A DNA stretch of 64,000 nucleotides from an uncultured Desulfurococcales archaeon (GTDB lineage Archaea; Thermoproteota; Thermoprotei_A; Sulfolobales; CAZFJX01). Positions 6,564 through 64,000 of this stretch are shown here, piece by piece (within the stretch, counting starts at the first letter, position 1; each line of letters opens with the position of its first letter). The DNA lies in the NCBI GenBank assembly GCA_964519505.1, contig CAZFJX010000006.1:29899-93898 (forward strand). The letters are read 5' to 3'. Both the position numbers and the translations under genes were made by a program. The notes below the pieces were generated by a model. The model worked only from the letters and a program-made list of their open reading frames with translations, had not been told where the DNA came from and searched no databases.

Positions 6564-7325
6564 CTAAGGCCTTAAGAACTTCCATTTACCTGACATATAC
6601 TTATACCTTAATGATTTAGCTAAATCAAGTTCTAGAGGTGTTAGTGATGTCTCCACTAACTTTATACCTAAGGCCTTACTGAAGCCCTTCTTTAAAGCCT
6701 CTATAGCCTCCTCCTTACTTACCTTCCTACCTATGGACTCTGAGATTGTAATTACTCTACTTCTAATATTGACTACACCTTTAGTCTTTAACTTAGCTAG
6801 TGGCACTTGAAGGACTTTAGAAAGTAGGTCTAGGTCGGTATCATACATGAACGTACCATGCTGTAATACGGTCCCAAACTTTATTGTCATAGCTTGACCA
6901 GAGAACTTCCTACCACCGATAACTACGTCATTAAGTGGTACGAACTCAGCATCAGCTCCTAGGTACTTAGCTGCTTCAACAACTCCACGTGTGATTACCC
7001 TAAATATCTCTTCAGGTTCCTTAGGTAAGTTTTCGACCTTAGTAATAAATGCGTAAGTTATTTCTCCGTTCTCATCATGGTATACGGAACCACCACCAGT
7101 GATTCTCCTAGTGAAGTCAATGTCCCTCTCCTTAACTAGCTCAAGGTTTAAACACCTAGATACGCTTTGGAAGTAACCTATGGTTATGGCTGATGGCTTA
7201 ATAACGTATAGCCTTAATGTATCGGGTATTAAGTCCTTTGATCTAAGGTAAAGTAGTGCTTCATCAATAGCCATTTGTAAGTAAACATCACCCTCAATGA
7301 ATACATACCTAACCTCCTTAACCAT
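6564..7325 (-). CDS. lplA: Lipoate-protein ligase A, catalytic (BPL/LPL) domain only
   Basis: RRITGGGSVYHD, GRKFSGQA (lipoyl-AMP-binding lysine context) and HGTFMYDTDL are LplA family signatures. At 253 aa it lacks the C-terminal domain. Confidence 0.8.
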   Translation of the reverse strand: MVKEVRYVFIEGDVYLQMAIDEALLYLRSKDLIPDTLRLYVIKPSAITIGYFQSVSRCLNLELVKERDIDFTRRITGGGSVYHDENGEITYAFITKVENLPKEPEEIFRVITRGVVEAAKYLGADAEFVPLNDVVIGGRKFSGQAMTIKFGTVLQHGTFMYDTDLDLLSKVLQVPLAKLKTKGVVNIRSRVITISESIGRKVSKEEAIEALKKGFSKALGIKLVETSLTPLELDLAKSLRYKYMSGKWKFLRP

Positions 7326-7392
7326 AAGTAGGTCACCCCACTAACTATCTCGAGGTTAAGTATAAAACATGTTCTAACATAGTAAGTAACAA

Positions 7393-8610
7393 TTATCTCT
7401 TCTTAAGCAGTAGGAACATTATTACCAAATACATAACTGATAATATGAGGAAAGCCATGCCGTCTAAGGCGACTTCAGTCACGATTAACTCCAGCCTTAA
7501 ACCTCTAAATAACTCATATAAGTAACCAGCAATTACTGGGTACGTAGCTACGGACACATTACCCACCATATTGATGAAACCTATAGCTAAACCCTTCTTA
7601 CGCTTAACGTAATTAAGGATTAAGCTTCTGGATAGAGGCATGATGGACTTATTAACTGCAAGCACCATGCCTATGGAGATTATGAGTATAGGTGTAGGTA
7701 TCTTCATTGTTATTAGAAGTAAGGCTATGGCAGATATGAACGCTATTATAGGTAATGACCTCTTCATACCGAAGACATCAGTTATATGTGCTAGGAGGAA
7801 GCTAACAGCTAGGCCTATGATTGTTGAGTAAGACAGTATTTCACCTAAGAAACCCTTACTAAGTCCGTGATATTCATAGGTAAATATATATAGGAACTCA
7901 CGTAGAGTTCCCATGGTAAAGCCTGCAGCTACAGTGATAAGGATTATTAAGGCTACTCCATATAGAGATGACTCATTGATTACCCTCCTCGGTTTATCCA
8001 TACTTGCATTACGTACCTGTTCAACACTGCCCAAACCTTTAGCTATGATTAAGGAGATGAATAAAGGTGTTAATGATACTATATAAAGCATACTTGAGTA
8101 TGTAAGTACTAGCTTTAAATTCTCACTATACATAAGACTGTAGAGGTAAAAGCCTAAGGCGATACCCACATCACCTGATGAGAAATACAGGGCAAATACC
8201 CTAGACCTTATCTTAGGGGGTGATAACTCACCAACGATCAGCTGTACTATAGGCCATGACATACCAGCAAATAGTCCTTGGATAATCCTAAGTAAAGCAA
8301 AATTAGCCCAACTACTGCATAGTGAGTAAAGAAATATAATAGCCCCGACGCCGTAAAGACCAAAAATAAGACACTCTTTCTTTCTAATGTAATCACTTAT
8401 GAACCCGGCTATGAGTGAGGATGAGGCTCTACCAATCATGAATGCCGTAGTTAGTAACGTCACTTCAACGACGTTAGCCTTAAGAACTTCATAGATGAAG
8501 AAAGTTATAAAAGGTCTAATCAGCGTTGTAACTAAGCATGTAAGTATCACAGTGATTATAATTAGACCTAAGAATAGGATAAAACTCTTGCTTAAGTGGT
8601 GGGTACTCAA
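7393..8610 (-). CDS. MFS transporter
   Basis: About 12 TM helices. MFS loop 2-3-like motif GFISDYIRKKE. 4-nt overlap with the upstream MscS gene. Confidence 0.75.
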   Translation of the reverse strand: MSTHHLSKSFILFLGLIIITVILTCLVTTLIRPFITFFIYEVLKANVVEVTLLTTAFMIGRASSSLIAGFISDYIRKKECLIFGLYGVGAIIFLYSLCSSWANFALLRIIQGLFAGMSWPIVQLIVGELSPPKIRSRVFALYFSSGDVGIALGFYLYSLMYSENLKLVLTYSSMLYIVSLTPLFISLIIAKGLGSVEQVRNASMDKPRRVINESSLYGVALIILITVAAGFTMGTLREFLYIFTYEYHGLSKGFLGEILSYSTIIGLAVSFLLAHITDVFGMKRSLPIIAFISAIALLLITMKIPTPILIISIGMVLAVNKSIMPLSRSLILNYVKRKKGLAIGFINMVGNVSVATYPVIAGYLYELFRGLRLELIVTEVALDGMAFLILSVMYLVIMFLLLKKR

Positions 8611-47458: not shown

Positions 47459-47956
47459 ATGGGTTGGGGCCCAGTCATGGTTAAGATCGCTAAGTTAGCC
47501 GCCATGGTCCTATTGATAGTCATAGTGCTATTAGCGTCTATATCCGTAGTCATTAACTATGTCATCAGGTTATTCAGCCCTAATACACCACTACCTACGG
47601 AAGTAACTACCTATCCCATGCCTCACGTATATATAGTCGATATAGTGCCCACACCGCCTAACATGCTCTCAATCTATATAGAGAATAGCGGTAGTGTCGA
47701 TGGGGTTATACGTAACATAAAGATAAGGTTTAAGGGTAAACTATATGTAATTAACTTAAGTAAGTTAAACATATCGCCACCACTTAAGGTCGTTAATAAG
47801 ACCATAATCGTACCAGGAGGCTCTTTCGGAACCATAGATGTTACTACAGACTTCAACTTCACACTCGGTGATAGGTTCATAGTATTTATTTACTTCCTTA
47901 AGAACGATATGATAGTAGATCGGCGTGAAGTAATAGTGACTAAGGGTGAGGCTTAG
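47459..47956 (+). CDS. Hypothetical N-terminally anchored exported protein
   Basis: 165-aa ORF with an N-terminal TM (AAMVLLIVIVLLASISVVI) followed by a beta-rich domain with N-x-S/T sequons. Confidence 0.4.
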   Translation: MGWGPVMVKIAKLAAMVLLIVIVLLASISVVINYVIRLFSPNTPLPTEVTTYPMPHVYIVDIVPTPPNMLSIYIENSGSVDGVIRNIKIRFKGKLYVINLSKLNISPPLKVVNKTIIVPGGSFGTIDVTTDFNFTLGDRFIVFIYFLKNDMIVDRREVIVTKGEA

Positions 47957-47959
47957 CGT

Positions 47960-48022
47960 GTTAGGGATGATGAAGACCTTTGGAGAAGATGGGTGATTAA
48001 ATGGTGGAGTACTGACTAAAGC
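47960..48022 (+). ncRNA. Candidate C/D-box sRNA (2'-O-methylation guide)
   Basis: C box AUGAUGA 47967-47973. 12-nt guide 47974-47985. D' AAGA 47986-47989. 3-nt loop. C' GUGAUUA 47993-47999. 12-nt guide 48000-48011. D box CUGA 48012-48015. Flanks TTAG/CTAA can pair. Confidence 0.55.
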
Positions 48023-48060
48023 AGTCAAGCTTAATTAGGATTAGCACACCTTAATTCACG

Positions 48061-48128
48061 GGCCCCCGCAAGAAGCGCACCTAACCGACCCCGGAGGGAT
48101 GAAGGTGTGTTATCCGGCGGGGGTTACA
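48061..48128 (+). ncRNA. Candidate single-hairpin H/ACA-box sRNA (pseudouridylation guide)
   Basis: 9-bp lower stem 48061-48069/48117-48125 (GGCCCCCGC/GCGGGGGUU) followed immediately by ACA (48126-48128). Pocket strands AAGAA (48070-48074) and UAUCCG (48111-48116). 8-bp upper stem 48075-48082/48103-48110. The apical region holds CCGA...AUGA, which is K-turn-like. The element is a GC-rich island in an AT-rich spacer. Confidence 0.5.
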
Positions 48129-48143
48129 CCAAAACATTTCTAA

Positions 48144-48994
48144 TTACGGTTTAGCTAATTCAGGATAATTAATAAGGGTGTCGAGATCATTGGTTATCTC
48201 CTCAATAACCTCCTTACTTAGCGCTGTAGTGGTGCCCTTGATCTTACTCTCATAATTACTCTTAAGCCATGTCGCTAAGTCCCGGTTAAAACCTGACGCT
48301 AACTCAATAAGCATTCTTGGATTACCATTGGTTAAGTACCATGCATGCTCAACGATTTCGTTATTAGGTGGGCTTAATTGGTAAGCCAACTCACTAAAGG
48401 GTTTCTCTAGGAGGTTCCACATCATGACTAAAGAGGCGTGTGTATGTCTTGATGGTAGGTCTTTACTAAGACCCTCGCTCGTCATTGCTATGATTAAAGC
48501 CGTAGATACCTCATAAGATGATAACGATTCCTCTAGTAGATTAAGTAAGTTCTTTACATAAATGTCTATACCTTCAAGACCTAAAGCTCTAGTAACGTCA
48601 TCAACAACTATAACTAAGTGTCTATCCTTAAAGATAATTCTCTTAGCTACCTCACTGATTAACCTTGAGAGCGCTAAAGAGAGGAGCTTACTTACAGAAC
48701 TACCTAAGAAGTTACTTACCATCCCTAGAGCAACCTTAATAACTTCGTCATGACCGAATATAGTCCTCCTAACATCTAGTTGTGCTAGGGCGTCTATATA
48801 GATAGTTAAGTAATCCTCTCGATTTCGAACTCTACTAACGTACTCCTTAAGTAACCTAGTTTTACCACACCCTTCAGGTCTGTTGATATATAGTACCGGG
48901 TAGAAACCCGACCCTAATAGAGGTTTCTGCCCCTACTACCTAGTTCTTTAAGCCTTCCTAACTCAGCTTCTTTATCGATGAATCTAAGGTACAA
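48144..48994 (-). pseudogene. Frameshifted 'archaeal ATPase' (PF01637-like AAA/STAND NTPase)
   Basis: N-terminal piece (TTG 48994) LYLRFIDKEAELGRLKELGSRGRNLY* stops at 48914. A second frame, open from 48932, reads GQKPLLGSGFYPVLYINRPEGCGKTRLLKEYV... (Walker A) and runs into ...HLVIVVDDV (Walker B) down to 48144. The frame switch lies within 48914-48932, next to a G4 run. Confidence 0.65.
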
Positions 48995-62931: not shown

Positions 62932-64000
62932 TTAAGTAACGGTAACGTATTTAGCAACTAACTTTAGAAGTATAGGTGTTACTATTGAGGTTACGGCTGC
63001 CATTAATACAACGGCTGAGAAAAGCTCTAAAGTGAAGATCCCTAATGAATAGAAGGCACTAGCTATAGCCAGCTCCACGGCAGCCCTACTATTCATGGCT
63101 ATGCCTACAATTAGGGCTTCACCGTTAGTAAACCTAGATATCTTAGCTCCCAAGAAACCACCAAGTATCTTACCTACGAATGCCGCAACAATGACGGCCA
63201 AGATTAAATCAGATATTTGAGTAATTACTCTAAGATCTGTTTTTATGCCTATATATGAAAAGAATAATAGGGCGAAGAAAGCGAATGTGAAATCAAAGAT
63301 CTCGCCCTCAACTTTCCATGAAAGTAATCCCCTAAGTAACATACCAGCTATGAATACACCTATTATCTCATGCAGTGAGGCGACTCTAGCTAGCAACCCG
63401 AATAGGAATGCCAGTGATATAGCTAAGACTAATTGAGATGTTGGTGACCTAAAGTACTTATCAACAAATAGTCTAACCCTTAGGTGGGTACATACATACT
63501 TAGTAACTAAGAAACCCGAACCTATGAATAATGCGCTACTTAAAACCGAAAAAGCCGTTACGTGGAAAGCAACACTTCCTTCAGTAGCTAATGAGAAAGC
63601 TACCGACATAAGTATAAGTCCAATGACATCATCATCTATAGCGGCATTTATAACGGCTAGCCCTACCCTAGTCCTAAGCATCCTCAGATCCATGAGAACC
63701 CTAACACTAAGTCCTATGGCTGTTATAGAGAGAGACGTCCCTAAACCAAAGCACTGAATAAAGTTTAGTCCGTAAGCTATCCCGATACAATAACCTAAAG
63801 TAAAGGGAACTATGACGCCCATAACAGCTATTACGAACCCCTGCCTCCAATATTTAATGAACCTACCTAAATCAATTTCAAGACCTGCGGACATCATAAA
63901 GAAAACAACACCGAGAACGGCCAAGACCTCAAGCTCCTCTCTAGGAGTTATTAAGTTAAGAAGCGAAGGACCTAAAATAATGCCAGCAAGTAACTCACCA
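62932..64000 (-). CDS. Cation:proton antiporter (CPA2, Kef/NapA type), 5' truncated by window edge
   Basis: The frame continues beyond the annotated Met to the window end (GELLAGIILGPSLLNLITPREELEVLAVLGVVFFMMSAGLEIDL), the canonical Na_H_exchanger N-terminal motif. Polytopic membrane protein. Confidence 0.8.
   Translation of the reverse strand, partial: GELLAGIILGPSLLNLITPREELEVLAVLGVVFFMMSAGLEIDLGRFIKYWRQGFVIAVMGVIVPFTLGYCIGIAYGLNFIQCFGLGTSLSITAIGLSVRVLMDLRMLRTRVGLAVINAAIDDDVIGLILMSVAFSLATEGSVAFHVTAFSVLSSALFIGSGFLVTKYVCTHLRVRLFVDKYFRSPTSQLVLAISLAFLFGLLARVASLHEIIGVFIAGMLLRGLLSWKVEGEIFDFTFAFFALLFFSYIGIKTDLRVITQISDLILAVIVAAFVGKILGGFLGAKISRFTNGEALIVGIAMNSRAAVELAIASAFYSLGIFTLELFSAVVLMAAVTSIVTPILLKLVAKYVTVT

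Follow-up and report, generated by a model that had tools for sequence, protein, structure and literature searches.

A GC-rich hairpin of 68 nt, located on the plus strand at positions 48061-48128 of the 64-kb stretch of DNA analyzed here (64,000 nt, referred to as the window), quite probably represents the gene of a single-hairpin, canonical archaeal box H/ACA pseudouridylation guide sRNA, which is currently an orphan guide. The evidence lies in its sequence, its fold and spacings, an occurrence better than chance, its conservation together with a neighboring box C/D guide sRNA, and its strand bias. The source of the window is an uncultured Thermoproteota archaeon of hot-spring/hydrothermal origin. 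Identical or near-identical contigs are found in several metagenomes, and the organism is carried by JGI metagenomes 3300022470, 3300022188 and 3300014887 as well as by SRR7051321 and SRR6301444.

Architecture of the candidate H/ACA RNA

The whole element (48061-48128) reads GGCCCCCGC AAGAA GCGCACCU AACCGACCCCGGAGGGAUGA AGGUGUGU UAUCCG GCGGGGGUU ACA and comprises the following features, where L086 is the relative described below:

48061-48069, plus strand: lower stem, 5' strand GGCCCCCGC, with 9 of 9 pairs to 48117-48125; identical in L086
48070-48074, plus strand: 5' guide strand of the pocket, AAGAA, unpaired in the canonical fold; putative guide role
48075-48082, plus strand: upper stem (helix 2), 5' strand GCGCACCU, with 8 of 8 pairs to 48103-48110, two of them G-U
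48083-48086, plus strand: four surplus nucleotides, AACC, between helix 2 and the following GA (from sequence reading and fold energies)
48087-48088, plus strand: GA, the probable non-bulged strand of a K-turn judging by the motif, within a D-box-like CCGA
48089-48097, plus strand: C stem of the K-turn (C89-G97, C90-G96) with the loop CCGGA; RNAfold pairs C89-91 with G96-98; invariant in L086
48098-48102, plus strand: three-nucleotide K-turn bulge GAU plus GA, a C-box-like GAUGA (from sequence reading)
48103-48110, plus strand: upper stem, 3' strand AGGUGUGU, partner of 48075-48082 in folding
48111-48116, plus strand: pocket, 3' guide strand, UAUCCG (6 nt), without change in L086
48117-48125, plus strand: lower stem, 3' strand GCGGGGGUU, partner of 48061-48069 in folding
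48126-48128, plus strand: ACA box, abutting the lower stem; kept in L086

The lower stem, whose two terminal pairs are both G-U (G61-U125 and G62-U124), has 9 bp and is immediately followed by ACA, in agreement with the canonical arrangement of 7-9 bp plus ACA/ANA. The internal loop contains 5 nt on the 5' side and 6 nt on the 3' side, which is within the canonical range of ~5-8 and 5-6 nt, respectively; a pocket of this size allows up to 11 guide pairs and counts among the smaller ones. [quoted passage not shown]

The apical element and the putative K-turn

The apical part of the hairpin contains the motifs CCGA (48085-88) and GGGAUGA (48096-102). The location of GAUGA on the 3' strand and CCGA on the 5' strand is what an archaeal H/ACA K-turn should show, judging by K-turn/K-loop geometry. 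The GA of the 3' strand (48101-02) caps the 8-bp helix without a gap, and the two together make up a 10-layer GA stem; by their positions, tandem sheared pairs G87-A102 and A88-G101 could form. The spacing on the 3' strand is therefore exact for 10 layers, and the partner GA (48087-88) is set off from the helix by 4 nt.

Two models of this region have nearly the same energy. When AACC is bulged and G87-A88 pairs with A102-G101, the fold has -30.9 kcal/mol; when A83-A84 pairs with A102-G101, and GACC joins a loop of 9 nt, it has -30.8 kcal/mol. The second model puts an A-A pair at the second position, and the 8-bp helix is kept in both. A register free of the bulge (A79-U110 ... C85-G104) was also considered and rejected, as it reaches only -13.8 versus -30.9 kcal/mol, a cost of 17 kcal/mol.

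As read from the sequence, the putative K-turn is not a standard one, since it carries four extra nucleotides on the non-bulged strand, which normally has no surplus. We found no description of such a four-nucleotide surplus on the 5' strand of canonical H/ACA RNAs; single bulged nucleotides and extra sheared pairs beside the GA pairs are known. The L7Ae-binding K-turn or K-loop that had been proposed at the apex agrees with GAUGA, CCGA and the exact spacing of the 3' strand, but the partner GA is displaced by the four surplus nucleotides, and the motif, if formed, would be a non-standard one.

Folding, strand bias and chance occurrence

The preliminary description had suggested folding as a check, and RNAfold gave a minimum free energy (MFE) of -36.7 kcal/mol for the hairpin (z = -4.0 versus 200 dinucleotide shuffles), with both the 9-bp and the 8-bp stems formed. 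The MFE structure closes three pairs within the pocket (G72-C114, A73-U113 and A74-U111), and the fold with an open pocket has -30.9 kcal/mol. Such zipped pockets are common among predicted H/ACA RNAs. In the MFE structure of the L086 variant the pocket is open except for G74-U111, which extends the upper stem and leaves a 4/5-nt pocket. The minus strand folds worse (-32.1 kcal/mol, z = -2.4), because four G-U pairs become A-C.

The hairpin is also the highest GC island of the entire window (0.68 in 50 nt versus a mean of 0.398), which bears out the GC-rich island initially reported. In hyperthermophiles with AT-rich genomes, structured RNAs typically stand out as GC islands.

The chance of finding such an element was estimated with a descriptor built from published canonical values and not from the sequence of the hairpin itself. 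It consists of ACA, a 9-nt strand of the lower stem, a 3' guide of 5-6 nt, and an 8-nt helix strand preceded by GA and, on the 5' side, a GA at most 7 nt from the helix and a 5' guide of 4-10 nt. The chance model comprised 1500 random sequences of 64 kb with the dinucleotide transitions of the window. In its strict form, with all pairs required, the descriptor retrieved the hairpin as its single match when both strands of the window were scanned, and it found one match in 1500 x 64 kb of random sequence, i.e., 0.0007 per window. With one mismatch allowed per stem, the chance rate rises to 0.195 matches per window, so that it is the flawless pairing of the stems that makes the match significant. 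When a covariance model was built from both variants known (see below), it detected no second copy in the window, and thus the hairpin is not a repeat element.

Genomic setting and the probable C/D sRNA neighbor

The hairpin is located in a spacer of 187 nt, flanked on one side by a plus-strand gene of 165 aa and on the other by a convergent short ORF of the ATPase_2 family (PF01637). The only homologues found for the 165-aa gene are relatives with 100% and 94% identity. The ATPase_2 ORF (48144-48722, minus strand, 192 aa) ends 16 nt away from the hairpin, which lies beyond its stop codon. In another contig (L085), the ATPase_2 gene is called at 113 aa (2018-2359) near the end of a 2.4-kb contig, where it is possibly cut. 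Being short here and absent in L086, the ATPase_2 ORF looks like a decaying or variable gene.

Two further features of the spacer precede the hairpin:

47964-48016, plus strand: probable box C/D guide sRNA, with C AUGAUGA (47967-73), D' AAGA (47986-89), C' UGAUUA (47994-99) and D CUGA (48012-15)
48030-48039, plus strand: possible archaeal TATA-like element CTTAATTAGG (from sequence reading), conserved in L086 and centered ~26 nt upstream of the hairpin

Separated by 8 nt from the stop codon of the upstream 165-aa gene, the C/D sRNA contains two guides of 12 nt, AGACCUUUGGAG and AAUGGUGGAGUA, whose complements are CUCCAAAGGUCU and UACUCCACCAUU. It matches the Sulfolobus sR5 family of Rfam with 31 bits (E = 1.2e-5), under the gathering score of 40, and several other archaeal C/D families match it weakly. 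By its sequence, this neighbor looks real. From its end at 48015 to the hairpin there are 45 nt, close to the ~40 nt that had been given. The suggestion that the spacer might encode a cluster of two guide RNAs gains support from the C/D boxes and the sR5 match, as well as from the joint conservation of both RNAs in L086. No tRNA or other Rfam family was detected in the window.

A distance of ~26 nt from a TATA element is typical of archaeal promoters. The candidate guide may use its own TATA-like element, or it may be made jointly with the upstream C/D sRNA. The heptamer CTTAATT occurs twice in the spacer between both RNAs (within 48030-48039 and at 48050-48056, plus strand), and both copies are conserved in L086.

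Further along the host contig, ~6-8 kb beyond window position 64000 (L108/L109 2571-4473), a resolvase gene (HTH_17 plus Resolvase) is followed by a gene encoding a Cas12f1-like TnpB. This pair looks like an IS200/IS605-type mobile element.

Conservation in a diverged relative

The collections searched contained one diverged relative of the locus, the metagenome-assembled genome (MAG) GCA_003661885.1 (L086), which has the same sequence as a JGI contig (L102) and shares the gene order MeaB-QueT-small ORF-C/D-hairpin. Its hairpin differs at 3 of the 68 nt, all of them in 48072-77 (G48072A, A48074G and G48077A). The last of these turns the pair 77-108 from G-U into A-U, and the other two change the 5' guide from AAGAA to AAAAG, two purine transitions that are both still able to pair with U. 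Since both transitions keep the pairing with uridines, the 3' half of the target would be UUUUU rather than UUCUU, as the two sequences suggest. All three substitutions appear compatible with the H/ACA model.

The 3' 51 nt of the hairpin, including the K-turn, the 3' guide and the ACA box, are identical in both variants. For comparison, identity to L086 amounts to 87-91% at third codon positions in the three genes upstream and to 69% in the 30 nt beyond the ACA box. Both guides of the C/D sRNA are preserved in L086, where substitutions affect the D'-C' spacer and the last base of C'.

Compensatory changes had been proposed as a further check, and no double change was found between the two variants known, the only sequence variants present in the collections searched, where a single one-sided change (G-U to A-U) was observed. 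With two variants and no double change, covariation thus neither supports nor refutes the stems. With a 3'-half pattern coded as purines and pyrimidines, the search for further orthologues in metagenomes yielded nothing but the variants already known and two chance hits (L103 and L105). Regarding the neighboring genes, synteny around QueT homologues persists in L086, at 92% identity, and has disappeared in L087-L089, at 56% and 49%, and the closest MeaB among species-representative genomes is 49% identical and belongs to a Desulfurococcales MAG, on a 2.4-kb contig, the remaining matches being bacterial.

The comparison with L086 bears on two readings of the hairpin that do not involve an H/ACA RNA. 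According to the first one, the functional strand would be the minus strand, and the hairpin would be a structure of the 3' UTR of the convergent ATPase_2 gene (48144-48722). The hairpin does begin 16 nt past the stop codon of that gene, and the minus strand also folds, at -32.1 kcal/mol with z = -2.4. However, L086 lacks the ATPase_2 ORF and retains the hairpin and the C/D gene intact, and therefore the hairpin is tied to the plus-strand unit. Moreover, four G-U pairs turn into A-C mismatches on the minus strand, and ACA, GAUGA and CCGA read correctly on the plus strand alone. We regard this reading as extremely improbable.

The second one considers the hairpin as a structural element that would protect or terminate the 3' end of a transcript carrying the 165-aa gene and the C/D sRNA, with a fortuitous ACA box and fortuitous GA motifs. 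The position at the end of the plus-strand unit, with a short T-rich stretch within ~10 nt after it, agrees with such a role, as do the 0.195 chance matches per window of the relaxed descriptor and the fact that the searches described below found no target. Nevertheless, archaeal termination relies on oligo-T tracts and does not need hairpins. A hairpin that simply stabilizes a transcript would have no need of a 5/6-nt internal loop, of GA/GA at exactly 10 layers or of an ACA box at exactly 15 nt, a combination with a strict chance rate of 0.0007 per window, and the unpaired bases of the 3' guide and the K-turn are invariant in L086, whereas the sequence after the ACA box has diverged. A mere structural role is unlikely, and an H/ACA guide encoded on the plus strand is the reading that we prefer.

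The preliminary description had also proposed a scan with the archaeal H/ACA models of Rfam, and none of them matches the hairpin: no H/ACA family reached the gathering score in the window, and none appeared at E <= 10 in 47900-48200, where the only matches were to C/D families. This negative result excludes membership of RF00058, RF00060, RF00064 and RF00065 but not membership of the class, because the models cover particular lineages (Pyrococcus/Thermococcus).

A second hairpin with the same architecture

The covariance model of the two variants gave one weak match (18.5 bits, E = 0.055 over 182 kb) at 7284-7361, minus strand, of L100, the Thermoprotei contig Ga0527077_0057 of JGI 3300050342, just upstream of its 16S gene. 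The L100 hairpin, whose guides are AACCG and UCUCCA, folds at -36.1 kcal/mol (z = -3.9). It contains an ACA box and a K-turn strand GAAUGA, is spaced 10/6/9, and here too the 5' strand carries a surplus of four nucleotides. As judged by sequence, it appears to be a second example of the architecture and not an orthologue, because the guide sequences differ.

The four-nucleotide surplus shared with L100 leads to a more specific reading, namely a lineage-specific H/ACA variant in which this surplus of the 5'-strand K-turn is fixed and whose pocket, with its purine-rich 5' guide (AAGAA/AAAAG), might recognize a substrate other than mature rRNA, such as the U-rich intron or trailer of a pre-tRNA, or an mRNA. 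We consider it unlikely. Only two points of the canonical guide are unusual, its short pocket directed at U and the surplus in the K-turn.

Search for a target RNA

The pocket predicts a substrate of the form 5'-CGGAUA-U-N-UU(C/U)UU-3', with G-U alternatives. Archaeal rRNA operons were reached via spurious ORFs antisense to 16S present in the protein database, with the translation of a Sulfolobus-like 16S sequence serving purely as a probe. The resulting set comprised two complete Thermoprotei operons (L100 and L101), a third Thermoprotei contig with 16S plus positions 1-2124 of 23S (L097), whose 23S gene is interrupted by an intron encoding LAGLIDADG, and two 16S sequences of ~52% GC that are not thermophile-like (L098 and L099).

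The predicted target was not found in the three Thermoprotei sets, where the best score was 12/22; the only copy of the six-base complement of the 3' guide with a U after it is in L100, in a region that is not conserved. No target was found in the 16S sequences of L098 and L099, and nothing above 9 (of 22) in the rRNA of E. coli. Neither did the ~82 kb of host DNA (the window plus ~18 kb, ~9 kb on each side) contain a match; the single tRNA in the flanking ~18 kb, tRNA-Gly(GCC), does not match the pocket. A search for crenarchaeal rRNA in viral contigs returned bacterial 16S only. By hand comparison, the pocket presumably does not fit tRNA-Tyr U35, 23S U2597 (E. coli 2457), the 16S h31 m1acp3-pseudouridine site or 16S U8.

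[quoted passage not shown] This intron, encoding a homing endonuclease in the 23S of an unrelated hyperthermophilic archaeon, spans L097 218-748 (23S positions ~2249-2779 of the contig), and the partial guide matches in it are coincidental. On the archaeal contig L098, whose 16S has 52% GC, a Cbf5 gene (6810-7730, minus strand; DKCLD/TruB_N/PUA) lies ~5 kb from the 16S gene and adjoins a ribosomal-protein/RNA-polymerase cluster and three tRNAs.

As a positive control, the L100 hairpin was scored against its own rRNA operon; the best value was 10/22, and no target emerged, so that a scoring scheme without bulges or mismatches has limited power. The missing target is a weak negative for several reasons: the rRNAs searched were non-cognate; the C/D guides were also without a 12/12 match in the same foreign rRNAs; the scoring failed for the L100 hairpin in its own operon; and verified Sulfolobus guides pair imperfectly. 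In fact, the proven guides of S. islandicus form 8-11 bp with bulges and mismatches, and their targets are hard to predict (PMC11077068).

The missing target raises the question of whether the hairpin is an H/ACA-shaped RNA that would bind L7Ae without guiding pseudouridylation, either a degenerate or orphan RNA or one acting by base pairing alone, e.g., as a chaperone in pre-rRNA or pre-tRNA processing. The K-turn and the ACA box are present and yet no target was found in the rRNAs of relatives, the pocket offers few pairs, the K-turn departs from the standard by its 4-nt insertion, and the two variants differ in the 5' guide, which could mean a relaxed constraint there. However, the target was sought in non-cognate rRNAs, the imperfect pairing of the S. 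islandicus guides (8-11 bp; PMC11077068) applies here as well, and the geometric features needed for catalysis all appear intact. This alternative is unlikely, to about the same degree as the structural 3'-end element, and the two are the main rivals of the reading that we prefer. Taken with the fold and its spacings, the structural half of the original H/ACA guide proposal stands; its functional half found no support in the non-cognate rRNAs searched, in compensatory changes between the two variants or in the Rfam H/ACA models, which does not amount to a refutation.

Proposed mode of action and significance

Transcription of the candidate guide, its binding by proteins and catalysis are proposed here by analogy with the H/ACA family. 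L7Ae would bind the GA/GA K-turn near the apex, the PUA domain of Cbf5 would hold the 9-bp lower stem and the ACA box, and Nop10 would bridge Cbf5 and L7Ae across the 10-layer GA stem. In such a particle, AAGAA and UAUCCG would pair with the substrate RNA on either side of one uridine, which would be placed in the active site of Cbf5, 15 nt from the ACA box, and converted to pseudouridine.

If the assignment is correct, a deep-branching uncultured lineage of Thermoproteota, known from metagenomes alone, encodes a classic H/ACA guide together with a C/D guide. The number of crenarchaeal H/ACA RNAs described so far is small, and the majority are atypical. The short U-directed pocket and the unusual K-turn would then provide test cases for the rules of target prediction and for the tolerance of the L7Ae-Nop10-Cbf5 scaffold. 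It would open no new question, as the H/ACA class, its proteins and its mechanism are already well established.

Comparison with known H/ACA systems

On the basis of Pyrococcus, Archaeoglobus and crystal structures, productive archaeal H/ACA folds have been assigned to either a '10/5/9' or a '10/6/9' family, with the ACA box 14-15 nt from the pocket and a 10-layer GA stem in all the solved RNP structures (Toffano-Nioche et al., 2015; PMC4652768). The hairpin resembles the '10/6/9' family, which includes Afu46 of Archaeoglobus fulgidus and the Pyrococcus Pab/Pf guides, in its 9-bp lower stem directly followed by ACA, in the 15-nt spacing, and in the guides of 6 nt (3') and 5 nt (5'), 5/6 being a described subfamily. 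It would also share the tandem GA/GA 10 layers above the pocket, a spacing that is exact on the 3' strand, and the U-ending bulge before the 3'-strand GA. Unlike the members of this family, it has the additional AACC separating helix 2 from the GA of the 5' strand, and its helix 2 consists of 8 Watson-Crick/G-U pairs instead of 5-6 plus non-canonical pairs. The match to the '10/6/9' fold holds on the 3' strand of the hairpin (GA 48101-02, 8 bp, UAUCCG, 9 bp and ACA). The hairpin has no sequence similarity to RF00058, RF00060, RF00064 or RF00065.

[quoted passage not shown] In the case of Sso1, Sto1 and Sac1, a C/D gene directly adjoins the H/ACA gene and is co-transcribed with it (PMC2651775), and therefore the pairing of a C/D with an H/ACA gene has a precedent in Sulfolobus. 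The arrangement differs from that of the classic Sulfolobales H/ACA RNAs in that the C/D gene is here upstream and not downstream, with a spacer of 45 nt. The published targets of the Sulfolobales and Aeropyrum RNAs do not suit the pocket either, since pre-tRNA-Tyr U35 needs a ...CUG-pairing guide and 23S U2597 a ...ACAGGC-pairing guide, a comparison made at the level of the targets. Finally, the hairpin resembles the atypical H/ACA-like RNAs of Pyrobaculum (sR203-210) and Sulfolobus (sR109, sR136, sR148 and sR563) in being a K-turn hairpin with flanking guides, and some of those RNAs also have bulges adjacent to GA.
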